A DNA stretch of 53,649 bases from Nitrospirae bacterium CG02_land_8_20_14_3_00_41_53 (GCA_002780895.1 PEUB01000123.1:1-53649); one strand, 5' to 3'; numbered from the stretch's first letter, positions 7,902 through 45,519 are shown. The notes: a model not told the origin generated them from the letters alone. Translations and numbers: made by a program.

Positions 7902-9949
7902 AACGTATAAAAGAAGAGATAGCCGGTGTCGTTTCTGCACTGGCGAGCCTTTATCTTTTTATGAGTCTGATCACACATTATATAAGAGATCCCGTTCTTT
8001 TTTTTCGAGCCACAGAACCTCCTGAACCGGTACGGAATCTCGGCGGAATAACCGGGGCATATATTTCAGGCTGGTTGATTATATTGTTTGGACTTGCTGC
8101 CTTTATTATCCCTTTTTTGATGGTTGCTTTTGGAATTAAACGGCTAATGGGGAAAGAGGGACATAAGATTTACCTGGTTGGAAGTATTTTATTTATTATA
8201 TCGTCTTCTTTATTATTTTCGCTATTATCCTACACCTTTAATATCACCATAATAAAATACCCTGATGGTATTGGCGGCCTTATAGGCAGAGGAATAGCTA
8301 ACCTTGCTAATCAGTTTTTCTACCTTCCCGGGGCCTATATCTTTTCGCTTTCTGTGTTCCTCTCTTCAATCATCTTACTGAGTCCTGTATCTGTTACTGC
8401 GCTTGTACTAAGAAGAAAAAAGCAGAGAGCAGAGGGCAAGGAGCAGAGAGAAGAAACAACTTTAGAAGACCAGGAGATACTTATTAGAGAACATGAACCT
8501 TTACCTGTATCTCAATCCATGCCCAAGATAGAGGTTGTGAGGCCAAGAAAGATAGGGAGCTATGAACTCCCGTCTTTAGAGCTACTGGGTCAACCTGACT
8601 CTGCAGCCTTAAGGCCTTCAAAGGATGAACTTTTGACATATTCATCACTAATCGAGAAAAAACTTGAGGACTTCAGTGTTGAAGGTAGGGTTACACAGGT
8701 ACATCCAGGCCCTGTTGTCACGATGTATGAGTTCGAACCTGCGCCTGGTGTGAAGATAAACAGGGTTGTCTCCCTTTCTGACGATCTTTCTCTTGCACTC
8801 AAGGCACAGAGCGTCAGGGTTTCACCAATTCCAGGAAAGGCCGCAATAGGCATAGAAATTCCTAACAGACAGAGGGAGATAGTATCACTTAGGGAAATCC
8901 TCTCATCGGATGGTTTTAAAAAGAATAATTCAAAGCTTGCCCTCGGTCTCGGTAAGGACATATTCGGAACACCGGTGGTGGCAGATTTAGGGAAGATGCC
9001 TCATCTTCTCGTTGCAGGTGCGACAGGTTCAGGCAAGAGCGTATCGATAAACGCAATGGTTATGAGCATACTGTATAAAGCAACGCCGACTGAGGTAAAG
9101 ATGTTGATGGTAGATCCCAAGCTGCTTGAACTATCAGCATACGAGGAAATACCCCATCTAATCTCACCTGTTATAACAATCCCAAAAGAAGCAGCAGAGG
9201 CGTTGAAAAAGATGGTCATAGAAATGGAGCGGAGGTACAGGGTGCTTGCAGAAAGGGCTGCAAGAAATATTGAAAGTTTTAACATCCAGGCAAGAGACGA
9301 GGATCAACTCCCTTATATTGTTATTGTTATAGACGAACTTGCTGACCTGATGTTTACAGCAGCAAATGATGTTGAAGACTCGATAGCCAGGCTTGCGCAG
9401 ATGGGAAGGGCATCAGGTATTCATCTTATCCTTGCGACACAGAGGCCCTCTGTTGACGTAATTACAGGAATAATAAAGGCAAACTTTCCTGCGAGGATAT
9501 CCTTCCAGGTATCTTCAAAGGTGGACTCAAGGACAATTCTGGATACACATGGTGCGGAACAGCTCCTCGGTAAAGGTGATATGCTTTTAATGTTACCGGG
9601 GGCAAGGACTATACGCGTCCACGGAGCCCTTATTACAGAAGAGGAAATAAATGCTGTTACTGAGTTCATAAAGTCGCAGGGAAGACCTGATTACACAATA
9701 TTAGAAAGCATACAGGATGCTGATGAAATGGAGGCGGATGAAAGGTCAGGGGAAAGAGACGAGATGTATCTGAAGGCGATCGAGTTTGGAGAGATGACTG
9801 GAGAGGTATCCATATCATCCATACAGAGGCGGTTCAAGATAGGATACAACAGGGCAGCGAGGATAATGGAGTTGATGGAAGAAGACGGCATTGTAGGCCC
9901 ACCAAGAGGTGCAGGAAAACCGAGGGAGTTTTTAAGGAGAAGGAGATGA
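7886..9949 (+). CDS. ftsK: DNA translocase FtsK
   Basis: 687 aa. N-terminal TM segments, a charged linker, the motor domain ([32 protein letters not shown]) and a gamma winged-helix C-terminus. Confidence 0.9.
8422..8449 (+). repeat. Heptanucleotide tandem array, gcagaga type, 4 units
   Basis: gcagaga gcagagg gcaagga gcagaga inside the FtsK linker ([11 protein letters not shown]). The unit resembles gcaaaga at 20621. Confidence 0.6.
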
Positions 9950-9963
9950 AAGCAGGATTTGTT

Positions 9964-10049
9964 TGGTGCCGAAGGCGGGATTTGAACCCGCATGGGTTAC
10001 CCCACACGCCCCTCAAACGTGCGTGTCTACCAGGTTCCACCACTTCGGC
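9964..10049 (-). tRNA. tRNA-Leu (anticodon GAG), class II with long variable arm, CCA encoded
   Basis: The reverse complement folds by hand. Acceptor GCCGAAG/CTTCGGC, anticodon stem CACGT/GCGTG with loop TTGAGGG, long variable arm, T arm GCGGG-TTCAAAT-CCCGC, 3' ACCA. Confidence 0.85.
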
Positions 10050-10086
10050 ATTGGCAGTTTATGCTACTACAAAAATCTGAGGTTTA

Positions 10087-10761
10087 TCAGGCAATGAGTT
10101 GTTTATTAATCTTGATTTTTATCTGTTTTTTAAGACCTTCAATATATGACTTAACTGCCTTTTCTTTTCTGTCATTAAGTATTTGCTCACTGAGCATCTT
10201 TACTAACTGGTTGTCACCAGATACCTTTTCTAAATTAGAATTGATAGCTGTCACATCAACAGACAGCTCTATTAAACGTCTCATTTTTTTGAGTGTTAGT
10301 TCCTGGCGTTTTGAACTCTCATATGCCTCTGGAGTTATCCTGTTCAGCCTCAGCCTGTTAAGGTAAACATCCTTATCGAATACACCATTTCTCAAAAAAG
10401 CTGGTTCATGTGTTATTGATTCTTGAAGTTCTTCGTCACTTATATTAATATCTGCTTCTTTAGCAGCTATAAGCAGGACCTGTTCATCTATCATTGAGTT
10501 AAGGACATTCTCTTTCAGGTTCATCTTTTTTTCCATCTCTTCATCAAACTTATCCTTATATATCTCCCTGTAAAAACGGGATACCCCTTCATACCTTCTC
10601 CAGTATTCCTCAGTTGTTATTTTGTATTTCCCAACCTCTGCTACAGTCTCAACGCCGCCTGTTTTATCTACACCGCCTACACCCCAGAATATAAAACTTA
10701 TTATTATCATAAAGAAAAGGACATAGAAATACTTTGCATGTTTTCGCATCACCTTGAGCAT
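10087..10761 (-). CDS. SurA N-terminal domain / PpiD-like periplasmic chaperone (no PPIase domain seen)
   Basis: 224 aa. N-terminal membrane anchor (YFYVLFFMIIISFIFWG) followed by a helical chaperone-like region. Confidence 0.55.
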   Translation of the reverse strand: MLKVMRKHAKYFYVLFFMIIISFIFWGVGGVDKTGGVETVAEVGKYKITTEEYWRRYEGVSRFYREIYKDKFDEEMEKKMNLKENVLNSMIDEQVLLIAAKEADINISDEELQESITHEPAFLRNGVFDKDVYLNRLRLNRITPEAYESSKRQELTLKKMRRLIELSVDVTAINSNLEKVSGDNQLVKMLSEQILNDRKEKAVKSYIEGLKKQIKIKINKQLIA

Positions 10762-10764
10762 CTA

Positions 10765-11172
10765 CTAATACCTCCCTGAAAAATAATCATTTATTATATC
10801 TCTGTGGTCAAAGGCTATCTGATCAGGCAGGATGTCTTTACTAAATACACCAATCTCTTTTGCATCATCTCCTGCGATTGCCTTGCCTTTAGCCTTTGCT
10901 ATAAAAACTGTTGTTATTGTATGGTGCCTGGGATCCCTTTTCGGGTCAGAGTATGTATGAAACTGCCTTAGTAGTTCAACATCGAGCCCTGTCTCTTCTT
11001 TTGCCTCCCTCACAGCAGCAGTCTCAAGGCTCTCCCCATATTCTACAAAACCTCCTGGCAGAGCCCACCCTTCAGGCGGATTTTTCCTCTTTATTAGTAC
11101 AATGCCTCTATTATACTCTATTATCAGGTCTGCAGTCGGAATAGGGTTACTGAGGTGGCTGCTGGTCTTCAA
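10765..11172 (-). CDS. NUDIX hydrolase
   Basis: 135 aa with Nudix box [23 protein letters not shown]. Confidence 0.8.
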
Positions 11173-11395
11173 ATCCTATCTCTATCTCCCTTTCAGGTAC
11201 TATTGTTGATATAGCATGCTTGTAAATGAGTGAATGGGTATTTTCTTTTAAGAGTATTACAAAGTTATCAAATCCTTTTATTACGCCTTTTAATCTCACC
11301 CCATTAGTAAGATAGACAACTACGGGAGTCTTGTCCTTCCTGAGTTGGTTCAGATAGTTGTCCTGAAGGTTCAGGGCCTTACCGGCAGTAATCAC
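11147..11395 (-). CDS. hfq: RNA chaperone Hfq
   Basis: 82 aa. [40 protein letters not shown]...YKHAISTI are the Sm1/Sm2 motifs. Confidence 0.9.
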
Positions 11396-11441
11396 AGCCT
11401 CTTCTCCTTTTATTTTTTCTTTTTACCTTAAAGTATTTTTC

Positions 11442-14167: not shown

Positions 14168-14256
14168 AAAACATTTTAAAATTAGGACAACAGTAAGTCA
14201 ATCTGTGGTATATTTATACCTAATCAGTTGCATAAAAAAAGAGGGAGGAGGCATTT

Positions 14257-15513: not shown

Positions 15514-15519
15514 GAAATA

Positions 15520-16176
15520 TTGAAAGTTGGTATATTCGGCGGGGCATTTAACCCTATACATTATGGACACCTGAGGGCTGCTGAGGAAGTAAGGGAAAGG
15601 CTTGAGTTTGATAAGATTCTTTTTATCCCTTCTGGGAATCCTCCCCTTAAAACAAAAGACCTTGCAGAAGCAGTGCATAGATATAAAATGACAAGGCTTG
15701 CTATTTTCACTAACCGTCTTTTTGAACTATCAGATATAGAATGCAGGCCGTCTGGAAAGTCATACACGGTGAAGACAGTTGAGGAGCTGAAAAAAAATAA
15801 TCCTGAGATAGAATTTTCCTTTATCCTTGGGATAGATGCCTTCCTCGACATCATAAACTGGTGGCACCCTGGAAGGTTGTTCACACTTACCAACTTTGTT
15901 ATCATCTCAAGACCTGAATTCAGATTCGTTGATCTGCATGCATCGCCCTATATTAAAATCAACAGAAGAATTCTAAAAAGCCTTGATAATGCAGAGATTG
16001 AAACATACACGATAAAACTTAAAGGCAGCAGGTATGCCACCCTTCTCAGACTTACCCCAATAGGGATATCTGCAACTGTAATCAGGAGGCTCATAAGGGA
16101 GAATAAAAGCATAAAATATCTATTGCCAGCAGAGGTTGAATCCTATATAATTGCTAATAAGCTGTATAAGAGTTAA
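15520..16176 (+). CDS. nadD: Nicotinate-nucleotide adenylyltransferase
   Basis: 218 aa, TTG start. GIFGGAFNPIHYGHL (HxGH) and ISATVIRR (ISSTxxR) motifs. Confidence 0.85.
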   Translation: MKVGIFGGAFNPIHYGHLRAAEEVRERLEFDKILFIPSGNPPLKTKDLAEAVHRYKMTRLAIFTNRLFELSDIECRPSGKSYTVKTVEELKKNNPEIEFSFILGIDAFLDIINWWHPGRLFTLTNFVIISRPEFRFVDLHASPYIKINRRILKSLDNAEIETYTIKLKGSRYATLLRLTPIGISATVIRRLIRENKSIKYLLPAEVESYIIANKLYKS

Positions 16177-16182
16177 CATCTT

Positions 16183-16628: not shown

Positions 16629-16641
16629 AATATAATCAATA

Positions 16642-18091: not shown

Positions 18092-20614
18092 TTGGAAGAA
18101 AGATATAATGCTCAAAGAATTGAGCTAAAGTGGCAAAGGTACTGGGCTGAGAAAGGGATATATAAGACTGATTTAGATCCTTCAAAAAAGAAATTTTACT
18201 GCCTTGAGATGTTTCCTTACCCTTCGGGTGAAATCCATATGGGACATGTAAGGAACTATGCTATCGGCGATGTAATAGCGAGGTATAAGCGGATGCGCGG
18301 ATATAATGTTCTTCATCCTATGGGCTGGGATGCATTCGGGCTTCCTGCAGAGAATGCTGCGATAAAACACGCTGTACACCCCTCAGAATGGACATATAAG
18401 AATATTGATTATATGAAAAAACAGCTTAACAGAATAGGACTCAGCTATGATTGGGAAAGAGAAGTAACCACCTGCAACCCTGAATATTACAAATGGAATC
18501 AGTGGTTTTTCCTGAAGATGCTTGAAAAGGGGCTTGCCTACAGAAAATATTCTTATGTAAACTGGTGTCCTTCCTGTGCAACTGTCCTTGCCAATGAACA
18601 GGTGATTGATGAAAAATGCTGGCGCTGTGACAGTATTGTCATTCAGAAGAAGCTTGAGCAGTGGTTTTTCAAGATTACCCACTATGCAGAAGAATTGCTT
18701 CAGGGCTGTAATGAATTAATGGGATGGCCCGAAAGGGTAGTCCTGATGCAGAAAAACTGGATTGGTAAGGGTGAAGGCGTGGAGGTGTATTTTCCCATTG
18801 TAGGAATGGATGGACAATTAAAAATATTTACCACAAGGCCTGATACCTTATTTGGTGTGACCTTTATGTGCATTGCCCCCGGACATCCTATGTCAGAAAA
18901 ACTGATTAAAGATATTGATAAGCTCGAGACCATAAAAGCAAAATATGGCAGGGAAGATGAGAAGATAGGGCTTTTTACTGGATATTACGCTGTTAATCCA
19001 CTAAATGGTAATAAAGTACCTGTATATATCGCAAATTTCGTGTTGATGGAATACGGGACAGGTGCAATTATGTCTGTTCCTGCACATGACCAGAGGGATT
19101 TTGAGTTTGCAAAGAAATATGATTTGCCTGTAAAAGTAGTAATAGTGCCGGAACATGACAGTAGAGGATGCCCCCCCACCCATCCCTCCCCCTCAAGGGG
19201 GGAGGGTAAGGGAGGGGGTGAAGCTCTCGATGCCCAGCTTACCGAGGCGTATGAGGATGAAGGTATACTTGTTGATTCAGGCCAGTTTACCGGTCTGAGG
19301 AGTGATATTGCGAGGCAGCATATAATAAAATTTATAGAAGAGAAAGGGCTTGGAAAGGCTGTAGTTAATTTTAAATTAAGGGACTGGGGCATTTCACGGC
19401 AGAGATACTGGGGTACACCTATCCCCATAATTTATTGCGATAGATGCGGTATCGTCCCTGTCCCGGAAAAAGACCTTCCTGTTATATTGCCAGAGGATGT
19501 GAAAATTACAGGTAAGGGAGGCTCACCACTCCTTGAGTCAGAAGAATTCCTCAAGGTTCAATGCCCCAAATGTGGTGATAATGCAAGAAGGGAAACGGAT
19601 ACCATGGATACCTTTGTGGATTCATCATGGTATTTTATACGTTACTGTTTTAGAAAAGGGGATATTGACTTAAACTCCGAACTCCGGACTCCTGACTCTG
19701 AAGTTGATTACTGGATGCCTATTGATCAATATATAGGCGGGGTTGAGCATGCAGTGCTTCATCTCCTTTATTCAAGGTTCTTTACAAAGGTTATTCGTGA
19801 TCTCGGACTTCTAAATGCAGGTGAACCTTTCCAGAATCTTCTTACACAGGGCATGGTCATAAAAGACGGTGCAAAGATGTCTAAGTCAAAGGGCAATGTT
19901 GTTGACCCTAATTATCTGATAGAGGAATACGGTGCTGATACGTCAAGGTTGTTTTCTCTCTTTGCTGCTCCTCCCGAGAAAGACCTCGAGTGGTCTGACA
20001 AGGGTGTTGAAGGCGTATACAGATTCTTGAACAGGATATGGGGGATTGTATACAAAAACAAATTCAAAATTCAAAATTCAAAATTCAAAATTAATAAAGC
20101 CTTTAGCCTTCAGTCTTCAGCCTTAGGCCTCTATCGGAAAACTCATCAGACTATTAAAAGAGTTACAACAGATATTGAACGTCAATACCACTTCAATACT
20201 GCAATAGCTGGATTGATGGAGCTTATGAATGAAATAACCTCATTTGATCCCAAATCCAATGAAGACTGGGCAATATTTAAATTTGCAATAGAGAAATTGT
20301 TAATCCTCCTCTGTCCATTTTCTCCACATATTGCAGAAGAACTATGGGAGGGGATAGGGAATGAGCCGAGTATATTAGAGCAAAAATGGCCTGATTGGGA
20401 TGAGGAGGCTGCAAAAGAAGAGAAGATAGAGCTTGTTATACAAATTAATGGTAAACTAAGATCAAAGATTATGATATCCCCAGGCGTTCCTGATGATGAG
20501 ATAAAGAAGATGGCACTTAACGACCAAAAAATCAAAGAGATTGTTGGCGCTAAGGTAATCAAAAAGGTTATCGTGGTAAGGGGTAAATTAGTTAATATAG
20601 TTATTGGAGAATAA
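18092..20614 (+). CDS. leuS: Leucine--tRNA ligase
   Basis: HMGHVRNY (HIGH) and KMSKSKGN signatures. I start at TTG 18092 ([15 protein letters not shown]), 8 nt after AGGAGG. The track ORF starts 13 codons upstream. Confidence 0.9.
19171..19218. repeat. C/G-run palindromic element, CCCTCCC/GGGAGGG variant, in frame in leuS
   Basis: cccccccacccatccctccccctcaaggggggagggtaagggaggggg, translated as [18 protein letters not shown]. Confidence 0.7.
19673..19700 (+). repeat. Heptanucleotide array aactccg/gactcct, 4 units
   Basis: aactccg aactccg gactcct gactctg inside leuS ([10 protein letters not shown]). Confidence 0.6.
20059..20092 (+). repeat. Heptanucleotide array caaaatt, 5 units
   Basis: caaatt caaaatt caaaatt caaaatt caaaatt inside leuS ([11 protein letters not shown]). 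Confidence 0.85.
20101..20130 (+). repeat. Heptanucleotide array cttcagc type, 4 units
   Basis: ctttagc cttcagt cttcagc cttaggc immediately after the caaaatt array in leuS ([10 protein letters not shown]). Confidence 0.65.
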
Positions 20615-20620
20615 ATGAAA

Positions 20621-20641
20621 GCAAAGAGCAAAGAGCAAAGA
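20621..20641 (+). repeat. Heptanucleotide array gcaaaga, 3 units (intergenic)
   Basis: gcaaaga x3, starting 7 nt after the leuS stop. Confidence 0.8.
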
Positions 20642-20750
20642 AAAATACGGTTAAGGCTATGGTTACGATGCTCGTATCGGTGACGTGAAAAAGTCGAATG
20701 ACGTGGCCGTAAGACGAAACGGGCTTCGTTACCCTGACCGTTTGACATGT

Positions 20751-20792
20751 TCTATGCTCTATGCTCTATGCTTTATACTATGTGCTATATGC
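20751..20792 (+). repeat. Heptanucleotide array tctatgc type, 6 units
   Basis: tctatgc x3, then tttatac tatgtgc tatatgc. Encodes the hydrophobic core of the LptE signal peptide. Its reverse-complement unit gcataga is one mismatch from gcaaaga at 20621. Confidence 0.8.
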
Positions 20793-21257
20793 TTGGCCGG
20801 TTGTGGTTATACAATCCATGGCAGGGCGGCCTTGCCTTTTGATTCAATACAGATAGCAAAGATCGAAAATGTGACTCTCGAACCAAAACTCCAGGACAGG
20901 CTTTATAAAGCCCTTACAGAGGAGTTTTTGAAGCAAGGGATTGCTGTTTATCCTGACGCAGGTTATAAACTCACTGGCACGGTTTATCAGTTTGAATTAC
21001 GTGTACTTTCTGAAAAGGCAGACATAGCAGCAGAATATGAGGTAATTATTAAAGGAGATTTTAGGCTGGTCGAACCTTCAGGAAATATAAAAGAGTTCAA
21101 AAACATAGGCTCTCCATTCATTGTATTTTTTCAAAGCTCTGGCATGCTGGAAGACGTGCTTGCAACTAAAGAACTTGCGTCAGAAAAGGCTATTAAAGAC
21201 ATGGCTATGGAGATAGTCGCTATACTTATTTACCCCGTTAGAAAAGGGGATTTTTAA
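20754..21257 (+). CDS. lptE: LPS-assembly lipoprotein LptE
   Basis: Lipobox LAGC followed by GYTIHGR, and conserved leuS-lptE-holA order. The start is uncertain (ATG 20754 chosen; the track ORF starts at 20685). Confidence 0.65.
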   Translation: MLYALCFILCAICLAGCGYTIHGRAALPFDSIQIAKIENVTLEPKLQDRLYKALTEEFLKQGIAVYPDAGYKLTGTVYQFELRVLSEKADIAAEYEVIIKGDFRLVEPSGNIKEFKNIGSPFIVFFQSSGMLEDVLATKELASEKAIKDMAMEIVAILIYPVRKGDF

Positions 21258-31844: not shown

Positions 31845-31868
31845 CTGCGGATTGCAGGCCGCAGATTA
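31845..31868 (+). repeat. Short degenerate heptamer run / 6-bp hairpin in the mraZ-rsmH spacer
   Basis: ctgcgg-attgcagg-ccgcag-att. Resembles the gatgcaa/gatgcgg units at 36440. Confidence 0.35.
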
Positions 31869-34897: not shown

Positions 34898-36480
34898 GAT
34901 TTAGAGAACTTCTTCATGGTTGCGAGTACATTAATCTCCCCTCACCCCCCTTTAATTCCCCCCTTAGTAAGGGGGGATATAGAGGGGTTAAAGGAGGGCA
35001 GGGGTGGTGGGACCTAGATATCTCAGGCGTAGCTTATGATTCCCGGAAGGTAAAAGAAGGTTACCTGTTTGTGGCAATTACAGGCGAGAGGTATGACGGA
35101 CACGATTTTATCAAAGATGCAATTAAAAGAGGTGCAGTTGCGATAGTTGGGGAGAAAGATTCTCCGATTCCTTTGTATATCCGTGTCAAAGACAGCAGAA
35201 AGGCACTTGCCTGTATAGCTAATAATTATTATGGAATGCCATCAGAGGCTCTCACACTGATAGGTATAACCGGTACAAATGGAAAGACAACAACAACTTA
35301 TATCCTAAAGTCTATTCTCGAGTCATGGGGAAAAGAGGTTGGCCTGATCGGCACAATTCAATACATGATAAAAGACAGGGTCTATCCTGCACTGCATACA
35401 ACACCTGAATCCCTTGAATTTCAAGGGCTATTAAAGGATATGCTTTTATCAGGATGCACATATGTTATCTCAGAGGTCTCTTCTCATGCACTTGCGCTGT
35501 ACCGAGTGGATAGGGCTATTTTTAATGTTGCATTGTTTACAAATTTTACAAGAGACCATCTGGACTTTCATAAAACTATGGAGGATTATTTCAGGGTAAA
35601 GAAGAGATTATTTATAGAGCTTCTTGATAAGGATGGTATCGCTATAATAAATCTTGATGATCCATATGGAAAGAGACTTATCTCGTCACTTATAGCTTTT
35701 AACCCGTCACAGGGTATATTGACATATGGGATAGAGAGCGGAGCAGATATCATGGCAGGTGATATTGATAACTCATCCGGGGGATTGAATTTCAAGATAT
35801 CATTCCGCGGCAGGAGTTATGATATCTCATCTCAGCTAATAGGCCTGCCGAATGTATATAATATAATGTCTGCAGTTGCTGTATCGATCTCGCTGGAGGT
35901 TCCATGGCAGGTAATCCTGGAAGGCTTAGTAAAGACAGGTAATATTACAGGCAGGTTCGAAAAGGTTGAAATTGGTCAGGAGTTTCTATGCATTATTGAT
36001 TATGCCCATACCGAAGATGCGCTTGAAAGGCTGATATCCACTGCAAGAGAATTTATCTTAACCCCCCATCCCCCCCTTACTAAGGGGGGGCATAGGGGGG
36101 GTCGCGTTATCACAGTCTTCGGTTGCGGGGGAGACAGAGACCGTGGCAAAAGGCCGGCGATGGGCGCAGTAGCAACAAGGCTTAGTGATTTTGTGATTGT
36201 AACCTCTGACAACCCGAGATCTGAAGAACCAACCGATATAATTAAAGATATCGAAAGCGGAGCAGTAAGGAAAAACTATCTCATAGAGCCTGACAGGGGA
36301 GAGGCTATCAGGAAAGCGGTTGGTATGGCAGGTGATGGTGATGTTATTCTTATTGCAGGCAAAGGGCATGAGGATTACCAGGACATTAAAGGTGTCAGGT
36401 ATAGATTTAATGACAGGGATGTTATTGAAGAGGCAATAAAATACAGGATGCAAGATACAAGATGCGGGATGCAAGATTGA
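34894..36480 (+). CDS. murE: UDP-N-acetylmuramoyl-L-alanyl-D-glutamate--2,6-diaminopimelate ligase
   Basis: GITGTNGKTTTTY, FGCGGDRDRGKRP and DNPRSE motifs. Two palindromic inserts and a heptamer-encoded C-terminus. Confidence 0.9.
   Translation: MRFRELLHGCEYINLPSPPFNSPLSKGGYRGVKGGQGWWDLDISGVAYDSRKVKEGYLFVAITGERYDGHDFIKDAIKRGAVAIVGEKDSPIPLYIRVKDSRKALACIANNYYGMPSEALTLIGITGTNGKTTTTYILKSILESWGKEVGLIGTIQYMIKDRVYPALHTTPESLEFQGLLKDMLLSGCTYVISEVSSHALALYRVDRAIFNVALFTNFTRDHLDFHKTMEDYFRVKKRLFIELLDKDGIAIINLDDPYGKRLISSLIAFNPSQGILTYGIESGADIMAGDIDNSSGGLNFKISFRGRSYDISSQLIGLPNVYNIMSAVAVSISLEVPWQVILEGLVKTGNITGRFEKVEIGQEFLCIIDYAHTEDALERLISTAREFILTPHPPLTKGGHRGGRVITVFGCGGDRDRGKRPAMGAVATRLSDFVIVTSDNPRSEEPTDIIKDIESGAVRKNYLIEPDRGEAIRKAVGMAGDGDVILIAGKGHEDYQDIKGVRYRFNDRDVIEEAIKYRMQDTRCGMQD
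34933..35010. repeat. Composite (apparently nested) C/G-run palindromic element in frame in murE
   Basis: aatctcccctcacccccctttaa[ttccccccttagtaaggggggatatagagggg]ttaaaggagggcaggggtggtgg, translated as NLPSPPFNSPLSKGGYRGVKGGQGWW. Confidence 0.7.
36059..36102. repeat. C/G-run palindromic element in frame in murE
   Basis: taaccccccatcccccccttactaagggggggcatagggggggt, translated as LTPHPPLTKGGHRGG, just before FGCGGDRD. Confidence 0.8.
36440..36477 (+). repeat. Heptanucleotide array gatgcaa type, about 5 units
   Basis: aatacag gatgcaa gatacaa gatgcgg gatgcaa gat. Encodes the MurE C-terminus (RMQDTRCGMQD) up to the stop. Confidence 0.7.
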
Positions 36481-36490
36481 AAAAAGATAT

Positions 36491-36518
36491 CAGGTATCAT
36501 GCATCATGAATCGTGCAT
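36491..36518 (+). repeat. Heptanucleotide array catgcat type, 4 units
   Basis: caggtat catgcat catgaat cgtgcat. Contains the candidate murF start ATG(s). Confidence 0.6.
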
Positions 36519-38976: not shown

Positions 38977-40161
38977 ATGAGGAATTCCAAATTTCAAATT
39001 TCAAATTTCAAAATTAATACAAGGATTCTTTTATGTCTTTTGGTTTTTTCACTTTTCACTTTTCACTTTTCACTTTCAACTTCTCTCGCTGATGAGATTC
39101 ATTCCAAAGCTGCAGTTGTAATGGGCGCCTCAACGGGAAAGATTCTTTATGCAAAAAACCCGAGTCTCAGACTTCCTCCAGCAAGCACAACAAAGTTAAT
39201 GACAGCAATAGTAGCTATAGAAAAAGCAGACCCTTCGCATATTGTAACGGTAAGCAGAAATGCCTCTCATGTTTCTCCTCATAAGGCAGGTTTCAGAGAA
39301 GGGGATAAGGTTACTGTTAAGACTCTTCTTTATGCTGCTTTAGTGGGATCTGCAAATGATGCGGCTGTTGCCCTCGCAGAAGCAGTGGCGGGATCTGAGG
39401 AGAGGTTTGTTTATCTAATGAACAGGAAGGCGATTGCTATGGGGTTAAAGGATACTAAATTCATAAACCCCCATGGGCTTCCTGGCCCTGGCCAGTATAT
39501 CACTGCTTATGATTTATCAAAAATAATGAGTTATGCGCTTAGATATCCCAAACTGAAAGAGATTATCGGAACCCGTGTGGCAGAGGTTTCGACCGAAAAT
39601 GGGAATGCGATATTTCTTAAAAACACGAACAGGCTTTTATGGTCTGACGAAGATCTTGTTGGAGGAAAGACAGGATATACACGTAAGGCAAGGCATTGTT
39701 TTGTATGTGCTGCTGAACGTGAAAAGGATAAGGTTATAGTTGCGCTCCTCGGTAGCCCGAGCAGGGATGAACTCTGGAGAGAGGCGGAGGTACTGGTACA
39801 AAAAGGATTCCGGGCGATAGCGAACAATGAGGAACCAGTCATCTATTTTGCGAAGGCAGACTATGATAAACTTTATATAAAAAAGGCATCCTATAAGAAA
39901 AGTTCAAAATTCAAAATTCAAAATTCAAAATTAAAGACTGATAAAAGGATAGCAAAAGAGACAGTAAAACATAAAAAGGCAAAGATGATTACAAAGAAGA
40001 AGGGTAAGGCAAAACTATTTGCAAAGAAAACAATGAAGTATAAAAAGGCAAAGATGATTGCAAAGAAAAAATGGAAGACAAAGACTTTTGCAAAAAGCAA
40101 AAACAATAAGGGAAAGAATTACAGGATTGCAGAGAAAGTTGAAGATAGAATTAAAGGATAA
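38977..40161 (+). CDS. Serine-type D-Ala-D-Ala carboxypeptidase (peptidase S11, PBP5/6-like) with lysine-rich C-terminal tail
   Basis: Signal peptide, then ASTTK (SxxK), SANDA (SxN) and KTGYT (KTG). ATG 38977 lies 6 nt after GAGG (GTG 38971 is also possible). The last 90 or so residues are K-rich and repeat-derived. Confidence 0.8.
   Translation: MRNSKFQISNFKINTRILLCLLVFSLFTFHFSLSTSLADEIHSKAAVVMGASTGKILYAKNPSLRLPPASTTKLMTAIVAIEKADPSHIVTVSRNASHVSPHKAGFREGDKVTVKTLLYAALVGSANDAAVALAEAVAGSEERFVYLMNRKAIAMGLKDTKFINPHGLPGPGQYITAYDLSKIMSYALRYPKLKEIIGTRVAEVSTENGNAIFLKNTNRLLWSDEDLVGGKTGYTRKARHCFVCAAEREKDKVIVALLGSPSRDELWREAEVLVQKGFRAIANNEEPVIYFAKADYDKLYIKKASYKKSSKFKIQNSKLKTDKRIAKETVKHKKAKMITKKKGKAKLFAKKTMKYKKAKMIAKKKWKTKTFAKSKNNKGKNYRIAEKVEDRIKG
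38987..39015 (+). repeat. Heptanucleotide array tcaaatt, 4 units
   Basis: ccaaatt tcaaatt tcaaatt tcaaaatt. Encodes NSKFQISNFKI at the carboxypeptidase N-terminus. Confidence 0.8.
39049..39076 (+). repeat. Heptanucleotide array tcacttt, 4 units (complement of aaaagtg family)
   Basis: tcacttt x4. Encodes the signal-peptide core FSLFTFHFSL. Confidence 0.85.
39904..39932 (+). repeat. Heptanucleotide array tcaaaat, 4 units
   Basis: tcaaaat x4. Encodes [11 protein letters not shown], the same peptide type as in LeuS. Confidence 0.85.
39971..40108 (+). repeat. Tandem direct duplication, 69-nt period (2 copies)
   Basis: ataaaaaggcaaagatgatt[a/g]caaagaa... recurs at 39971 and 40040. Encodes KHKKAKMITKKKGKAKLFAKKT / KYKKAKMIAKKKWKTKTFAKSK. 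Confidence 0.75.
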
Positions 40162-41782
40162 AAACGTAACAGTTGTGGGCCTTGCCAGGAGCGGCATAGG
40201 CGCGGCAAATCTGCTCACTGAACTCGGAGCAGACGTGACGGTAACAGATATAAAGAAAGAGGATGAACTTAAGGATTTTATACCGAAACTTGGACCTTCA
40301 GTCAAACTTGTCCTTGGAACACATCACGAGGATATATTCTTATCATCTGATATGTTGGTCATTAGTCCTGGTGTTCCGCTTACAATCACAGCTATTTCAA
40401 AGGCAAAAGCAAAAGGAATACCTATAATCGGTGAGCTCGAACTCGCATATCAGATAGCTACTTATGGGTCAGATAATCCTCCCATTCCGCCAATAATCCC
40501 CCCTCACCCCCCTTTAGAAAAGGGGGGAAGGGGGGATTTGATAAAGGGATGCATAGGGGGGGTTCTTGCTGTTACAGGCACAAATGGTAAGTCAACAACA
40601 ACAGCCTTACTTGACTTCATGATGAAAAGAGGTGGTTTCGAAACAATTCTCGGAGGGAATATAGGGAATGCACTGACAGAGGAAATACTTAAAATAGTCA
40701 AAAGTCAGAAGTCAGAAGTCAGACCCCCCACCTGCCCCCCCTTGCTAAGGGGGGGATTTGAGGGGGGGTGTTCTTTGAACTCCGGTCTAAACTCGTCACT
40801 TGATTTTATTGTTGCTGAGGTATCAAGCTTTCAACTCGAGTCAATAAAGGACTTCAGGCCAAAGGTGGCTTCGATACTCAATATTACACCCGACCACCTC
40901 GACAGGTACCACTCAATCAAAGAATACAGCGATGCAAAGGCAAGGATATTTGAAAATCAAAAAGAGGACGATTTTCTGGTCATTAATTGGGATGACCCTG
41001 AGACAATGAAAGTTAAAAGTGAAAAGTTAAAAGTGAAAAGTGAAAAACCAAAAATCTTTTACTTCAGTCGTAGAAAAGAGGTCAAGGGGATTTACTTTAA
41101 AAATGGTATGGTTTATTGCAATCTTCCTCCAATGACGGGGACAGTCCTAATCCCCCCTCACCCCCCCTTTGTTAAAGGGGGGATGGGGGGATTATTGGCC
41201 GGTAAATCTGGGACAGTCCCCTCAGTCCCCCTAATAAGGGCTGATGAGATAAAGATAAAAGGTGTCCATAACATGGAGAATGCCATGGCTGCTTCAGCCA
41301 TGGCTCTCCTTGCAGACTGCCCGATAAAGGCAGTTATAGATTCCCTGAGGGAATTTTCTGGTCTTGAGCACAGGCTTGAATTTGTCAGAGAGCTAAATGG
41401 TGTCAGGTATTTTAACGATTCAAAGGGGACAAATGTCGGCGCAGTCATCAAATCGCTTGAAGGCTTTAAGGGGCCGATTATCCTGATTGCAGGAGGCAGG
41501 GATAAGGCAGGAGATTTTTCTCTATTGAGGCATTTAGTAAGAGAAAGGGTAAAGGCTATTGTATTGGTAGGTGAGGCAAGTGAAAAAATAAAAGGGGCAC
41601 TCGGAGACCTCGCAGAGACAGTTATGGCTAAGGATTTGAGAGAGGCTGTAAACATATCATGTAGTATGGCAGTAAAAGACGATGTTGTTTTGCTTTCACC
41701 TGCATGTGCCAGTTTTGACATGTTTGCTAATTTTGAGGACAGAGGCAGACAGTTTAAAAAGATAGTGATGGAGATGGAATAA
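40139..41782 (+). CDS. murD: UDP-N-acetylmuramoylalanine--D-glutamate ligase
   Basis: VVGLARSG, VTGTNGKSTT, NDSKGTN and SPACASFD motifs. Start set at TTG 40139 (MKIELKDKNVTVVGLARSG). The track ORF begins at ATG 40058, inside the upstream gene's tail. Carries 3 palindromic and 2 heptamer inserts. Confidence 0.9.
   Translation: MKIELKDKNVTVVGLARSGIGAANLLTELGADVTVTDIKKEDELKDFIPKLGPSVKLVLGTHHEDIFLSSDMLVISPGVPLTITAISKAKAKGIPIIGELELAYQIATYGSDNPPIPPIIPPHPPLEKGGRGDLIKGCIGGVLAVTGTNGKSTTTALLDFMMKRGGFETILGGNIGNALTEEILKIVKSQKSEVRPPTCPPLLRGGFEGGCSLNSGLNSSLDFIVAEVSSFQLESIKDFRPKVASILNITPDHLDRYHSIKEYSDAKARIFENQKEDDFLVINWDDPETMKVKSEKLKVKSEKPKIFYFSRRKEVKGIYFKNGMVYCNLPPMTGTVLIPPHPPFVKGGMGGLLAGKSGTVPSVPLIRADEIKIKGVHNMENAMAASAMALLADCPIKAVIDSLREFSGLEHRLEFVRELNGVRYFNDSKGTNVGAVIKSLEGFKGPIILIAGGRDKAGDFSLLRHLVRERVKAIVLVGEASEKIKGALGDLAETVMAKDLREAVNISCSMAVKDDVVLLSPACASFDMFANFEDRGRQFKKIVMEME
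40475..40562. repeat. C/G-run palindromic element with extra partial arms, in frame in murD
   Basis: Core aatccccctcacccccctttagaaaaggggggaaggggggattt, flanked by aatcctcccattccgcc and ataaagggatgcataggggggg. Translated as DNPPIPPIIPPHPPLEKGGRGDLIKGCIGG, directly before the P-loop. Confidence 0.8.
40697..40723 (+). repeat. Heptanucleotide array gtcagaa, 4 units
   Basis: gtcaaaa gtcagaa gtcagaa gtcaga (KSQKSEVR), abutting the palindromic element at 40724. Confidence 0.85.
40724..40770. repeat. C/G-run palindromic element (cttgctaag centre) in frame in murD
   Basis: ccccccacctgccccccccttgctaagggggggatttgagggggggtg, translated as PPTCPPLLRGGFEGG. Confidence 0.8.
41008..41049 (+). repeat. Heptanucleotide array aaaagtg/aaaagtt, 6 units
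   Basis: gaaagtt aaaagtg aaaagtt aaaagtg aaaagtg aaaaacc (KVKSEKLKVKSEKPK) in murD. Confidence 0.85.
41148..41235. repeat. C/G-run palindromic element plus a downstream half-arm, in frame in murD, bracketed by a 10-nt direct repeat
   Basis: taatcccccctcaccccccctttgttaaaggggggatggggggatta (IPPHPPFVKGGMGGL). gggacagtcc occurs at 41138-41147 and 41210-41219. The half-arm tcccctcagtccccctaat follows. Confidence 0.8.
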
Positions 41783-42975: not shown

Positions 42976-44096
42976 GGGTAATAATAGCAGGAGGAGGTAC
43001 TGGAGGGCATCTCTTTCCAGGTCTGGCGGTGGCTGAAGAGTTCAAAAAGAGAGATGATTCAACAGAGGTAATATTTGTTGGAACAGAGTATGGAATAGAG
43101 GCGAGGGTGGTTCCGAGGGAGGGATATCCAATAAAGTTTTTAAAGGCGGAGGGTTTGGTAGGAGTATCAGCTGTCAAAAAGATAAAGGCAATAGTTATGA
43201 CGTTTTTTTCGATTATTGATTCTTACAAAATCATCAAGACATTAAACCCTGATATAGTGATAGGTGTTGGCGGATACGCTTCAGGGGCAGCTATGCTTAC
43301 TGCATATCTTATGTCTATACCGACCATGATACTGGAACAGAATTCCATACCAGGACTTACTAATAAGATTCTTGGAAGATTTGTAAGGGCAGTTTGCATA
43401 ACTTATCAGGAAAGTATCTCGTTCTTTCCAAAGGCAAAGACCTTCTTTACAGGGAACCCTGTCAGAATGCAGATACTAAAGGGGAGCATCGAGTCAGCAT
43501 ATAGGCTTTTCTCCCTTGAAAGGGATTTGTTCACTATATTTATTTTTGGAGGGAGTTCAGGTGCAAAGAGTATAAATATGGCGATTATAAATGCCCTTAA
43601 CAATATGTATGACCTTAAGGATAAGATTCAGTTCCTGCATCAGACAGGAATAAGAGATTATGAAAACATCAGAGAGGCATACAGGAAGCTCGGATTCAAA
43701 GGAACAATCACTCCATTTATATATCAAATGGGCGAGGCGTATGCTGTTGCTGATATAGTCGTTTCAAGAGCGGGTGCAACAACACTTGCAGAGTTAACTG
43801 CTTTAGGGAAGCCGGCAATATTAATCCCTTATCCCTATGCAGCCGGACAGCACCAGGAATTGAATGCAAGGAAACTTCTCGAGATGGGTGCAGCGAAGAT
43901 GATACGCGATAGAGAACTTAGAGGGGAATCCCTTGCCCATAACATAAGAGAACTATACACAAATGAGACAATGAGGGCAGAGATGCAAAGAAATAGCAAG
44001 GCGGTTGGAAGACCAGAGGCATGCTCAAAAGTGGTTGATATAGCAATGAGCTTGATAAAACAGGCGGCAGTCAACGGTCATCAGTCAAAAGGATAA
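42972..44096 (+). CDS. murG: UDP-N-acetylglucosamine--N-acetylmuramyl-(pentapeptide) pyrophosphoryl-undecaprenol GlcNAc transferase
   Basis: IAGGGTGGHLFPGLAVAEE and GGSSGA motifs. ATGA overlap with ftsW. Confidence 0.9.
   Translation: MRVIIAGGGTGGHLFPGLAVAEEFKKRDDSTEVIFVGTEYGIEARVVPREGYPIKFLKAEGLVGVSAVKKIKAIVMTFFSIIDSYKIIKTLNPDIVIGVGGYASGAAMLTAYLMSIPTMILEQNSIPGLTNKILGRFVRAVCITYQESISFFPKAKTFFTGNPVRMQILKGSIESAYRLFSLERDLFTIFIFGGSSGAKSINMAIINALNNMYDLKDKIQFLHQTGIRDYENIREAYRKLGFKGTITPFIYQMGEAYAVADIVVSRAGATTLAELTALGKPAILIPYPYAAGQHQELNARKLLEMGAAKMIRDRELRGESLAHNIRELYTNETMRAEMQRNSKAVGRPEACSKVVDIAMSLIKQAAVNGHQSKG
44070..44090 (+). repeat. Degenerate heptanucleotide run gtcaNNN, 3 units
   Basis: gtcaacg gtcatca gtcaaaa. 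Encodes the last residues of MurG (VNGHQSK), just before the stop. Confidence 0.45.
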
Positions 44097-44101
44097 AGAT
44101 A

Positions 44102-45493
44102 ATGTTTGAAAGATACAGGGTAGTACATTTTGTCGGGATAGGCGGTATAGGGATGTCAGGTATTGCAGAGGTGCTTTACAACCTTAACTACAAGGTGACA
44201 GGGTCTGATTTAAAAGATTCGGAGGCAACGGTAAGATTGAGGAAGTTAGGCATAAAGGTCTATATAGGTCATAAAGCAGAAAATATAGACGATGCCCATG
44301 TATTGGTCGTATCCTCAGCGGTTTCAGGAGATAACATAGAGGTAGCTGAGGCAAAAAGAAGGGCTATACCTGTAATACCACGTGCTGAGATGCTTGCAGA
44401 GCTGGCAAGACTGAAATACGGGATACTCGTTGCAGGGGCACATGGCAAGACAACAACGACATCTTTAGTATCGACTATACTTGCCCATGGCAGTCTTGAT
44501 CCCACTGTTGTTATAGGCGGAAGGCTAAAGGCAATAGGCAGTAACGCAAGACTTGGTCAGGGAGAATTCCTTGTGGCAGAGGCTGATGAAAGTGACGGTT
44601 CGTTTCTTAAGCTTTCCCCAACGATTGCCGTTGTCACAAACATTGACAGGGAGCATATGGATTTTTTCAAGACAATGGATTCATTGAAAAAGGCATTTCT
44701 TTCCTTTATAAATAAGGTTCCATTTTATGGCGTATCAATAATTTGTATTGAGAACGAGCACCTGCGTGAACTTTTGCCATCTATTCACAGAAGATACATC
44801 ACATATGGGCTTACCAATGAAGCAGAACTTTATGCAGAAAATATTAGAAAAGGTTTTATGTCGGTAAGCTTTGATGTAATCCATAAGGGCAAAAATTTTG
44901 GGAGTTTCGACCTTCCTGCGCCTGGGATACATAATGTCCTTAACAGCTTGGCTGCTATCGGCGTAGCATTAATTTTAAAACTAAATGTATCAATAATTAG
45001 AGATGCGCTGAAAGGGTTTAGTGGTATACAGAGAAGGTTTGAGTTTAAAGGTGAGGTGAACGGAATAAAGGTATTCGATGATTATGCCCATCATCCCTCA
45101 GAGATAAAGGCAACACTGAAGGCAGCAAAGGAAGGGCTCATTATTAGTCAGAAGTCAGGAAGATTATTTGTCATATTCCAGCCTCATAGATATACAAGGA
45201 CAAGGGATCTAATGGATGAGTTTTCATCTTCGTTTAATGATGCAGATTCACTCATACTTTTGGATATTTATTCTGCCGGAGAAAAACCAATGAAAGGCGT
45301 AAACTCAGCAACCTTGCTTGATAGGATTAAAAAAACAGGGCATAGCAGAGTTTTATATGCTGAAGATAGGGAAGATGCGATAAGGCATTTAATCTCTAAT
45401 ATGACAAGGGGTGATATCCTTCTTACTCTCGGGGCAGGCAATGTATGGAAGATAGGCGATGAGATACTAAATAAGCTAAAAGAGAAAAGTTAA
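44102..45493 (+). CDS. murC: UDP-N-acetylmuramate--L-alanine ligase
   Basis: HFVGIGGIGMSGIAEVL, GAHGKTTTTS, DDYAHHPSE and FQPHRYTRT motifs. Confidence 0.9.
   Translation: MFERYRVVHFVGIGGIGMSGIAEVLYNLNYKVTGSDLKDSEATVRLRKLGIKVYIGHKAENIDDAHVLVVSSAVSGDNIEVAEAKRRAIPVIPRAEMLAELARLKYGILVAGAHGKTTTTSLVSTILAHGSLDPTVVIGGRLKAIGSNARLGQGEFLVAEADESDGSFLKLSPTIAVVTNIDREHMDFFKTMDSLKKAFLSFINKVPFYGVSIICIENEHLRELLPSIHRRYITYGLTNEAELYAENIRKGFMSVSFDVIHKGKNFGSFDLPAPGIHNVLNSLAAIGVALILKLNVSIIRDALKGFSGIQRRFEFKGEVNGIKVFDDYAHHPSEIKATLKAAKEGLIISQKSGRLFVIFQPHRYTRTRDLMDEFSSSFNDADSLILLDIYSAGEKPMKGVNSATLLDRIKKTGHSRVLYAEDREDAIRHLISNMTRGDILLTLGAGNVWKIGDEILNKLKEKS
45147..45163 (+). repeat. Short gtcagaa heptamer run, about 2 units
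   Basis: gtcagaa gtcagga aga in murC (SQKSGR). Same unit as 40697. Confidence 0.4.
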
Positions 45494-45519
45494 AAGTGGA
45501 AACTCAAAATTTAAAAGAT
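45478..45519 (+). repeat. Heptanucleotide array aaaagtg type, 6 degenerate units across the murC-murB junction
   Basis: aaaagag aaaagtt aaaagtg gaaactc aaaattt aaaagat. Contains the murC TAA and the murB GTG. Confidence 0.65.

Follow-up and report, generated by a model that had tools for sequence, protein, structure and literature searches.

How do tandem arrays of a seven-nucleotide unit come to lie inside genes as essential as leuS, ftsK and the mur genes, and how do those genes stay open? The stretch of DNA that raises this question, 53,649 nt long and here called the window, comes from an uncultured Thermodesulfovibrionales bacterium (Nitrospirota), a relative of sulfate reducers, and the relatives of its LeuS and MraY are named Nitrospirota or Thermodesulfovibrionales. 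The initial annotation counted about 17 arrays with a 7-nt period; 14 are solid, with 3–7 units each, and those at 44070, 45147 and 31845 are weak. TRF reported 14 period-7 arrays of 3.1–6.7 copies in the window, at 8421, 19674, 20060, 20098, 20620, 20747, 36441, 36496, 38983, 39046, 39899, 40696, 41009 and 45473, and nothing at other periods comparable to this set. The solid and weak arrays are as follows.

8421..8454, plus strand: degenerate (AGCAGAG)~4.9, FtsK linker after the membrane domain, encoding 11 residues (TRF, translation).
19673..19698, plus strand: (AACTCCG)~3.7, inside leuS, encoding NSELRTP (TRF, scan).
20060..20092, plus strand: (AAATTCA)4.7 in perfect copies, leuS linker after the KMSKS loop, 11 residues (TRF, scan).
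20095..20124, plus strand: (AGCCTTC)~3.9, leuS, directly after the 20060..20092 array, 10 residues (TRF, scan).
20618..20641, plus strand: (AGCAAAG)3.1–3.4, intergenic, right after the leuS stop codon (TRF, scan).
20747..20793, plus strand: (ATGCTCT)~6.7, hydrophobic signal-peptide segment of the putative LptE lipoprotein, SMLYALCFILCAICLAGC (TRF, translation).
31845..31868, plus strand: weak, 3 degenerate units ACTGCGG ATTGCAG GCCGCAG between mraZ and rsmH (not reported by TRF).
36441..36477, plus strand: (ATRCAAG)~5, last 12 codons and stop of murE (TRF).
36485..36518, plus strand: (ATCATGC)~3.3, across the murE/murF gap and the murF start codon (TRF, scan).
38983..39012, plus strand: (AATTTCA)4.3, DD-carboxypeptidase gene just after the ATG, charged signal-peptide n-region SKFQISNFKI (TRF).
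39046..39076, plus strand: (TTTTCAC)4.4, reverse complement of the GTGAAAA family, hydrophobic signal-peptide core FSLFTFHFSL (TRF, scan).
39899..39932, plus strand: (AAAATTC)4.9, Lys-rich C-terminal tail of the DD-carboxypeptidase, 11 residues (TRF, scan).
40693..40723, plus strand: (AGTCAGA)~4.4, MurD loop between GNIGNALTEEI and DFIVAEVSSFQL, encoding KSQKSEVR (TRF, scan).
41007..41046, plus strand: (AAAGTGA/AAAGTTA)5.7, second MurD loop, encoding MKVKSEKLKVKSEK (TRF, scan).
44070..44090, plus strand: weak, GTCAACG GTCATCA GTCAAAA, MurG C-terminus (not reported by TRF).
45147..45162, plus strand: some 2 units of GTCAGAA, too short for an array, encoding ISQKSG in a variable MurC loop.
45473..45517, plus strand: degenerate (AAAAGTT/G)~6.4, across the murC stop codon (AGT TAA) and the murB GTG start (TRF).

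A separate tandem scan, which counted arrays of at least 3 copies at unit lengths k = 4–14, found 12 arrays at k = 7 in the window versus 5, 4 and 3 at k = 4, 5 and 6 and 0 at k = 8–14; in 60 dinucleotide-preserving shuffles of the window the mean at k = 7 was 0.22 and the maximum 2. Related genomes (263 kb) carry 68 arrays at period 7, where period 6 gives 12 and period 8 gives 6, and period 7 thus lies far above its neighbours in the window and the relatives alike, a check that the initial annotation had proposed. Being head-to-tail copies of one 1–11 nt unit, and commoner than composition predicts (12 versus 0.22), the arrays have two properties of LSSRs sensu Mrazek 2007. Heptanucleotides are the commonest class of long SSRs with 5–11 nt units (Mrazek, Guo & Shah 2007, as relayed in PMC4679880 and PMC4692102), and an excess of heptanucleotide SSRs is reported together with a proposal of polymerase slippage (as summarised in PMC4679880). 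So far as these accounts describe the Mrazek LSSRs, they too have head-to-tail 7-nt units far above other periods, a lineage-specific and patchy distribution and slippage as the proposed origin; the difference is that coding regions are there likeliest for units of a multiple of three, whereas here 7-nt units lie in intact ORFs (72%).

The hosts are indeed housekeeping genes. NCBIfam models identify LeuS, MurE, MurF, MurD, MurG, MurC and MurB above cut-off, as well as an FtsK-like translocase and a DD-carboxypeptidase or endopeptidase; the putative lptE is named solely from its synteny with PF04390 genes in relatives. These calls and the open ORFs bear out the proposal that 7-nt arrays lie inside intact essential genes, and the arrays are translated in all three phases as had been suggested, with 7-residue peptides such as SQKSEVR in intact ORFs. 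Among 80 arrays, 58 (~72%) lie wholly within intact long ORFs. The consensus unit is stop-free in 44 of these 58 and the remaining arrays stay open through variant units; in the MurD array at 41007, a GTT variant unit sits where a GTG unit would read an in-frame TGA. Stop-free units account for 71% of arrays on the plus strand, the bearer of nearly all host ORFs, versus 36% on the opposite strand. The in-ORF arrays encode linkers, signal-peptide segments and terminal tails, at positions that are hypervariable alignment columns between conserved blocks, and the MurG C-terminus is variable among relatives. The LeuS segment at 20060..20092 aligns 1:1, residue for residue, with the native segment of T. 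thermophilus LeuS (1H3N); an AlphaFold2 model of LeuS built from 44 close homologues was poor (mean pLDDT only 59.5). As judged from sequence alignment, most in-gene arrays are not insertions but have replaced a variable linker, signal peptide or terminus of roughly equal length. All of these sequences are metagenomic, which could point to an assembly or sequencing artefact of metagenome-assembled genomes. We regard this as next to impossible since exact array-bearing proteins recur on 56–78 independent contigs from several sources, MAGs of unrelated studies carry arrays at orthologous sites and every ORF stays open.

Comparison with close strains indicates how the arrays change. Strain L081 is 96.7% identical to the window over 3 kb and differs by 5 indels. 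Two of these fall inside arrays and measure exactly −14 nt and −7 nt; no other array indels were seen between strains. In L081 the murE array at 36441 lacks 14 nt (2 units), so that its C-terminal tail is a different one, and the murE/murF array at 36485 is 7 nt (1 unit) shorter; both changes lie at a C-terminus or in an intergenic/start region and leave murE and murF intact. Since these two arrays have changed in L081 by exactly 2 units and 1 unit, unit slippage is active, and the assertion that the arrays are not independent local slippage events was wrong as stated. In one strain with 100% identity across the dcw arrays, the arrays are unchanged, the three leuS arrays at 91.8% identity show unchanged copy number and point changes only, and full-length cluster members of at least 90% identity have internal arrays of unchanged copy number that stay in frame. 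Whole-unit copy changes between close strains, a further property of LSSRs, thus occur at two arrays, and internal CDS arrays are invariant. A leuS variant, KSKIQNSKSKI, inspected for concerted evolution, carries two point changes 21 nt apart with its other units unchanged, and the putative lptE signal peptide in strains at least 90% identical is unrelated to the array-encoded one of the window.

With 7 nt not divisible by 3, one unit more or less would shift the frame, and since unit indels do occur, the arrays could be contingency loci that toggle their host genes. Phase-variable SSRs such as the Haemophilus heptanucleotide repeats (PMC2651432, PMC8262952) share the frame-shifting unit length and the copy changes by slippage. 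We find this barely credible here: leuS, the mur genes and ftsK are housekeeping genes present in single copy, and LeuS, MurC/D/E/G, FtsK and LptE are not dispensable surface, restriction-modification or virulence proteins; the arrays are short (3–7 units); no on/off alleles were seen, nor any frame-shifting allele among the full-length members of at least 90% identity; and across all the strains and contigs examined, internal arrays showed no change in copy number and no broken frame, the observed indels falling where the genes remain intact.

The arrays are probably LSSR/STRR-like heptanucleotide simple-sequence repeats: slippage would make them and selection for open frames would sieve them. 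In some Thermodesulfovibrionales lineages 7-nt tandem duplication and deletion is a dominant mode of change in weakly constrained DNA, and arrays arise and turn over at gene junctions, in N-terminal signal-peptide regions, in linkers between domains, in surface loops and in C-terminal tails. Gene-end and intergenic arrays still change by whole units between strains, remodelling C-terminal tails, stop codons and start contexts, and internal arrays keep their copy number and decay through point substitution. Protein termini hold an excess of SSRs, and SSRs vary more there (PMC3315296). Purifying selection would strip out every array version that breaks a frame or adds a stop, so that survivors in essential genes would keep the frame, would mostly lack stops on the sense strand and would encode filler peptide suited to its place, with A-rich units in linkers and T-rich ones in signal peptides. 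In all likelihood the arrays are not a device but a by-product of mutation, either neutral or mildly selfish.

The distribution of the arrays among relatives is patchy. Of 16 related genomes, 10 show the period-7 excess, with 67 arrays in 190 kb, and such arrays are nearly missing from 6 interleaved relatives and from 64 outgroup loci (33 arrays in 1105 kb). This split among sister lineages hints at a specific gained or lost factor. Orthologous sites bear arrays in most array-rich genomes, but the units differ between genomes. The leuS 19673 array is old and common to most relatives, one of which has an AAGAGTC/AAGTCAG array instead; the leuS 20060 site has other units in relatives and the 20095 site has (TCACGCC)4; the carboxypeptidase 38983 site bears arrays of other units in L002, L003, L005, L006, L007 and L010; and the first MurD loop (40693) has AAATTTC, AAAAGTK, AAGAGTC or AGCAGTC arrays.

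This turnover bears on a regulatory role. TAACTGA repeats in Beggiatoaceae have been proposed as binding sites for an RNA- or DNA-binding protein (PMC4679880), and by analogy the arrays might be cis-regulatory elements, acting in mRNA or DNA as protein-binding sites that tune translation at the dcw and leuS–lptE operon junctions. Junction arrays at leuS/lptE (20618), murE/murF (36441–36518), mraY/dac (38983), murG/murC (44070) and murC/murB (45473) would fit such a role. It is nonetheless quite improbable, given that many of the arrays within ORFs are distant from any start codon, that units are not conserved at orthologous sites, that the GTGAAAA family occurs in both orientations on one transcript strand (39046 versus 41007) and that copy number varies between near-identical strains.

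The unit repertoire fits slippage less easily. That the same unit types recur at unlinked loci beyond AT-rich composition was an early claim that stands: the 80 arrays form 28 identical-unit pairs versus ~2–4 in nulls, and 17 within-genome (non-orthologous) pairs match with at most 1 mismatch versus 3.9 expected, so shared units are enriched above what composition gives. The units are A/T-rich (A 36%, T 28%) with a preferred core of (T/G)TCA. Cyclic TCA occurs in 34 of 80 units versus 12.6 ± 3.2 in a null of equal AT content and stop-freeness, and in only 2 of 33 outgroup arrays. We rejected AT-richness and stop avoidance as the whole source of this core, as they raise the expectation from 9.3 to 12.6 and explain only part of it. 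Genome-specific amplification of unit families was also rejected: unit likeness within a genome does not exceed that between genomes (permutation p = 0.44), so there is no sign of recent within-genome dispersal, and the picture of dispersed families is to that extent unsupported. AAAATTC (KFKIQNS) arrays also occur in ORFs of Nostoc, Okeania, Moorena, Microcoleus and Bdellovibrio, although a (KFKIQNS)6 protein search is of no use for listing host proteins, nearly all its matches being tiny spurious ORFs over long arrays.

Slippage on random local sequence predicts neither the TCA bias nor the identical-unit pairs, and gives no reason to expect a unit type to sit at one site in one genome and at another site in the next, as with KLKVKSE (MurD loop 1 in L006, loop 2 in the window) and SNFKFQI (MurD in L005 and L010, carboxypeptidase in the window); its strain evidence consists of two array indels, and the patchiness among sisters again hints at something specific. 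A sequence-specific process that seeds and homogenises (T/G)TCA-core heptamer arrays, whether by a nickase, primase or transposase-like enzyme or by ectopic gene conversion or template switching between arrays, would account for the TCA enrichment over the matched null and its rarity in outgroups, the unit families at unlinked loci and the patchy richness. It might be horizontally shared with cyanobacteria and other heptamer-rich lineages, consistent with the AAAATTC arrays there and with the occurrence of TAACTGA in several phyla (PMC4679880). We consider such a process possible but unlikely. The heptamer arrays showed neither flanking repeats nor target duplications nor conserved borders, and they lack the defined ends, inverted repeats and target-site duplication of MITE/REP-like elements; within-genome unit likeness is not raised; no candidate gene was found; the strain indels are plain whole-unit changes; and the TCA bias comes partly from AT-richness and stop avoidance. 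Its strongest form, a dedicated, horizontally gained and lost heptamer-writing activity with a TCA/TGA-core preference that continuously overwrites all unconstrained DNA, including the loops of essential enzymes, and is also behind STRR and TAACTGA, is distinctly doubtful. If it were true, the interleaved sister lineages would let comparative genomics find the gene.

Slippage filtered by selection, our preferred reading, places the arrays among known bacterial repeats. TAACTGA direct repeats of marine Beggiatoaceae, some cyanobacteria and Bacteroidetes (MacGregor 2015, PMC4679880) are similar in copy number (2–6), in lying often at gene junctions and in their cross-phylum spread, and a minority lie inside ORFs at protein peripheries, where they encode 7-residue periodic peptides; in Beggiatoaceae these include the MurG C-terminus (PMC4679880). 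They differ in having one dominant unit, which has stops in all three frames in forward orientation, and in lying mostly between genes, a few nucleotides upstream of starts, whereas here there are dozens of units, mostly in ORFs (58/80), with few arrays at junctions. Tandem TAACTGA is absent from either strand of 381 kb of window and relatives.

Cyanobacterial STRRs are likewise dispersed tandem heptamers of several unit families, with AAAATTC-type arrays in Nostoc and other filamentous cyanobacteria, but have been described mostly from intergenic DNA of heterocystous hosts, and the arrays here belong to another phylum (Nitrospirota/Thermodesulfovibrionales). The canonical STRR1–3 units are CCCCAGT, TTGGTCA and CAACAGT, none of which occurs in tandem in the 381 kb of window and relatives. 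The unit AGCAGTC is one mismatch from CAACAGT, a lead only. Elhai and colleagues reportedly noted in 2008 that small dispersed repeats in Nostoc sit in heptamer repeats. STRR heptamers are mentioned for heterocystous cyanobacteria (Calothrix, Nostoc) in PMC4692102, and the GGGAATC/GGGGAYT repeats of Xanthomonas and Nostoc (Rehm 2015, PMC4692102) share the heptamer period, the dispersal and a preference for ~4 units; these form G-quadruplexes and occur less often than expected in coding regions (PMC4692102), whereas the present units are A/T-rich with a TCA core and lie mostly in ORFs. Tandem GGGAATC never occurs in 381 kb of related DNA, and GGGGATT occurs once in 2 tandem copies, never 3. The window arrays are not phase variation and fall outside the unit-defined families TAACTGA, STRR1–3 and GGGAATC.

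Literature searches found nothing tying heptamer repeats to Nitrospirae/Nitrospirota or Thermodesulfovibrio. The arrays had been called undescribed, which holds for Nitrospirota and for the gene context but not for the heptanucleotide SSR excess (Mrazek 2007) or MurG-terminal TAACTGA, both known from what PMC4679880 relates. The Nitrospirota arrays are an unusually gene-tolerant case of known bacterial heptanucleotide repeats. The clade offers a clean natural experiment on why bacterial SSRs favour 7-nt units, a question standing since 2007, in which the free linkers of universally conserved LeuS, MurD and MurC serve as neutral recorders, overwritten in array-rich lineages and not in interleaved sisters; complete genomes of array-rich and array-poor pairs could reveal the responsible replication or repair factor. 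Signal peptides, loops and tails of essential proteins accommodate filler encoded by repeats, and slippage by whole units reshapes C-termini as well as stop and start codons.

For those who annotate MAGs, the arrays and the GC-rich palindromes that occur with them account for inserts of low complexity that make housekeeping proteins over-long, and together they are likely to mislead start-site calling. We rejected the arrays as footprints or partners of the palindrome: 1 of 12 palindrome copies (at 40735, beside the MurD 40693 array) adjoins an array, and the palindrome's strain indel has 10-nt direct repeat flanks, not 7-nt. This separate GC-rich palindromic element of the window does show MITE/REP-like features.

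We used Tandem Repeats Finder, a self-match scan and shuffled sequence to examine the heptanucleotide periodicity of the window. Tandem Repeats Finder returned 14 distinct period-7 arrays of 3.1-6.7 copies each, from 8421 to 45517, with no other period comparably represented. The self-match scan found 12 period-7 arrays of at least three copies and 5, 4 and 3 for periods 4, 5 and 6, with none for periods 8-14; 60 dinucleotide-preserving shuffles gave a mean of 0.22 period-7 arrays and a maximum of 2, while the period-5 count is at the level of its shuffles. Within the window, the comparison proposed in the initial annotation, period 7 against 6 and 8, gives 12 arrays versus 3 and 0. That annotation had listed 17 arrays with correct coordinates, units and periodic peptides, but three of its entries (44070, 45147 and 31845) are weak, the one at 45147 amounting to ~2 units. 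Assembly artefact is excluded because proteins identical to those of the window are encoded on 56-78 independent contigs.

LeuS, MurE, MurF, MurD, MurG, MurC and MurB match NCBIfam families above curated cut-offs, and NCBIfam also identifies an FtsK-type translocase and a DD-carboxypeptidase or endopeptidase. The window ORF 3' of leuS has no family match; in relatives the gene in this position is LptE (PF04390), followed by holA. All LeuS and MraY relatives with 64-87% identity carry a Nitrospirota or Thermodesulfovibrionales label, and the 90% cluster includes one member named 'Thermodesulfovibrio sp. RBG_19FT_COMBO_42_12'.

The signal extends across the clade, as indicated by the dcw loci around mraY from 80 genomes. 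Array counts drop smoothly with period in the outgroup whereas period 7 stands out in the relatives.

Arrays by period in dcw loci
16 Nitrospirota relatives, 263 kb: period 7, 68; period 6, 12; period 8, 6
64 outgroup loci, 1105 kb: period 7, 33; period 6, 89; period 8, 8

Array richness among the 16 relatives is an all-or-none trait: 67 arrays are spread over ten loci totalling 190 kb, and the other six (L004, L009, L012, L014, L015 and L016) have a single array in 73 kb. In a neighbour-joining tree built from five concatenated proteins, the poor lineages (one of them a MAG labelled T. yellowstonii) branch among rich ones; L015, for example, has L007 and L011 as array-rich sisters, L009 has L005, L010 and L013, and L004 has L001-L003. 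This interleaving suggests a factor that has been gained or lost.

Across window and relatives, 58 of the 80 arrays lie wholly within intact long ORFs, which make up 87% of that sequence; coding DNA is therefore only mildly depleted of arrays, unlike the situation for heptamer families described so far. Window arrays encode an FtsK linker, two LeuS segments, the signal peptides of LptE and the DD-carboxypeptidase (in which T-rich units are read as FSLFTFHFSL and MLYALCFIL), the Lys-rich carboxypeptidase tail, two MurD loops (40693-40723 and 41007-41046) and the C-termini of MurE, MurG and MurC. The leuS/lptE, murE/murF and murC/murB junctions are occupied by arrays as well, which provide a stop codon and start codons there. 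Aligned protein sequences place each in-gene array in a hypervariable region flanked by conserved blocks. The array-encoded LeuS linker of 31 residues aligns with a native segment of T. thermophilus LeuS (1H3N) with a single gap, indicating that arrays overwrite sequence rather than insert into it.

Several local features accompany these genes. The carboxypeptidase C-terminal tail (39960-40140) is very Lys-rich and has an internal repeat of ~21 residues (KHKKAKMITKKKGKAKLFAKK / KYKKAKMIAKKKWKTKTFAK); murD, taken as its longest possible ORF, shares ~100 nt with it, and the predicted start of murD depends on the gene caller (547 or 564 aa). In the related locus L082 (92% LeuS nucleotide identity), synteny breaks exactly at the leuS stop, the site of the window's intergenic heptamer array. 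There (10625-20486) leuS is followed not by lptE and holA but by a cold-shock gene and then a giant ORF of >3151 aa that runs past the locus end and carries ABC-toxin/TcA-TcB domains; an AbiEii/AbiEi pair lies upstream.

The most striking result of our analysis is that units turn over at shared sites. The LeuS linker carries adjacent heptamer arrays in the window and in all five relatives examined at the DNA level, with two arrays recognisable in most of them; the first has the unit AAATTCA, AAGCGTT-like, AAGTTAC or ACATCCA and the second AGCCTTC or TCACGCC. The carboxypeptidase gene start carries AAATTTC, AAAATTC, AAAACAG/AAGTCAG, AAGAGTT, AATAGCT or ACGAGTT in seven genomes, and both MurD loops are likewise array sites whose units differ between genomes. 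Unit types also move between sites: KLKVKSE occupies MurD loop 1 in L006 and loop 2 in the window and L007, and SNFKFQI occurs in MurD in L005 and L010 and in the carboxypeptidase in the window. A regulatory role for the arrays is improbable given the lack of unit conservation at orthologous sites, the internal position of most arrays and the presence of one unit family in both orientations. AAATTTC is tandem within ORFs in the window (38983-39012), L005 (8810 and 12702) and L010 (12744). This unit is a canonical X_XXY_YYZ -1 ribosomal-frameshift slippery heptamer (A_AAU_UUC), probably by coincidence.

We also compared closely related strains. Over 3 kb, L081 is 96.7% identical to the window with only five indels, of which two lie in GC-rich palindromes and two alter the length of heptamer arrays by exactly one or two units. 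One of the latter removes 14 nt from the array at the MurE C-terminus (36441-36477) and, with +1 A nearby, gives the protein another tail, with its stop now on the murF ATG; the other removes 7 nt from the array over the murF start (36485-36518). The three internal arrays of L082 leuS (91.8% identical) keep their copy number and show point substitutions only, and the dcw arrays of L087 are identical (100% identity across them). Whole-unit slippage thus occurs where a frameshift is harmless, with internal arrays frozen. Phase variation through the arrays is very unlikely, since the hosts are essential and internal arrays are invariant. Selection is also visible within arrays: 14 of the 58 in-ORF arrays have a stop in their consensus unit and are kept open only by variant units. 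In the array at 41007, GTT takes the place of GTG in the unit whose phase would otherwise bring a TGA into frame.

The best-supported reading, and in our judgement a reasonably likely one, is that these are heptanucleotide SSRs that arise and change by slippage whose 7-nt bias is lineage-specific. Purifying selection would filter the arrays, so that essential genes keep, at permissive sites, only versions that are tolerable and in frame.

The recurrence of units, which the initial annotation had taken as a sign of dispersed families, does exceed composition. The 80 units include 28 identical-necklace pairs, against ~2 for random genomic heptamers and ~4 for heptamers matched in AT content and stop-freeness, and 169 pairs with at most one mismatch (random ~37, matched ~53). 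Near-identical pairs within a genome, for which orthology is impossible because both units are in one genome, number 17 versus 3.9 expected (maximum 13 in 500 trials). An unbiased word test found 34 of 80 units to contain cyclic TCA (9.3 expected; 12.6 +/- 3.2 under the matched null), commonly as part of TTCA or GTCA, against only 2 of 33 outgroup arrays. This bias is in part a coding effect, because an A/T-rich unit read in all three frames needs C to return from a T-run to an A-run without a stop, but that accounts for only a small part of the excess. The AAAATTC/KFKIQNS array is also found in Nostoc, Okeania, Moorena, Microcoleus and Bdellovibrio. A genome-specific unit flavour was rejected, as units are no more similar within a genome than between genomes (permutation p=0.44). 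A process that writes or disperses specific sequences might account for the TCA-core bias, the recurrence of units across sites and phyla and the patchy phylogenetic distribution; we nevertheless regard it as unlikely, as the arrays have no element borders, no candidate gene was found and units are not in excess similarity within genomes.

Some prokaryotes have an excess of heptanucleotide SSRs, with polymerase slippage as the proposed cause; PMC4679880 and PMC4692102 credit this to Mrazek et al. 2007. Unit-defined heptamer families include cyanobacterial STRR, the Xanthomonas/Nostoc GGGAATC/GGGGAYT repeats, of which coding regions are depleted (PMC4692102), and Beggiatoaceae TAACTGA, with start codons mostly downstream and 24 sets at ORF peripheries, MurG among them (PMC4679880). 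In 381 kb of the clade GGGGATT occurs once as two tandem copies and never as three, and TAACTGA, GGGAATC and the STRR units CCCCAGT, TTGGTCA and CAACAGT are never tandem; the arrays are therefore of the same kind but outside those families. Their enrichment and higher variability at protein termini match a general SSR trend (PMC3315296). The initial annotation had called such arrays undescribed, which is too broad given the known SSR excess and the TAACTGA set at MurG, although we found no paper linking heptamer repeats to Nitrospirota. The novelty lies in the phylum, in how heavily arrays occupy intact essential genes, in sites that go on holding arrays while their units turn over, in the TCA core and in the interleaving of array-rich and array-poor sisters.

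A second dispersed repeat in the window is a GC-rich nested palindrome, roughly TAATCCCCCCTCA-CCCCCCTTTAGTAAAGGGGGG-ATGGGGGGATTA, of ~45 bp per copy.

GC-rich palindrome, 12 copies: 1210, 13401, 13784, 19188, 34958, 36070, 40507, 40735, 41161, 42880, 46804, 47601

Copies lie mostly in ORFs and in frame, giving 'PPxPPLxKGGxGG' peptides in LeuS, MurE (2 copies), MurD (3 copies), the FtsW C-terminus and a MutL-like gene. For AARGGGGG we counted 45 occurrences where 6.8 are expected. The 41161 copy is missing from an otherwise 100% identical strain as a 72-nt in-frame indel, comprising 62 nt and one copy of a 10-nt direct repeat, GGGACAGTCC. In-frame insertion is a likeness to Rickettsia palindromic elements. 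Tandem repeats of periods other than 7 nt include GGGGTTTTCTAAC x 2.5 at 21246-21278, across the lptE end and the gap to the next ORF, which by synteny is holA, and, at 27971-28010, 2.4 copies of a 17-nt unit. Finally, MraZ binds GTGG-type direct repeats with 10-nt spacing. At 31342-31366, AGTGGTAGAA x 2.5 with a 10-nt period covers the GTG start (31353) of an ORF whose counterpart in the related locus L081 is MraZ (PF02381), and may be an MraZ operator.
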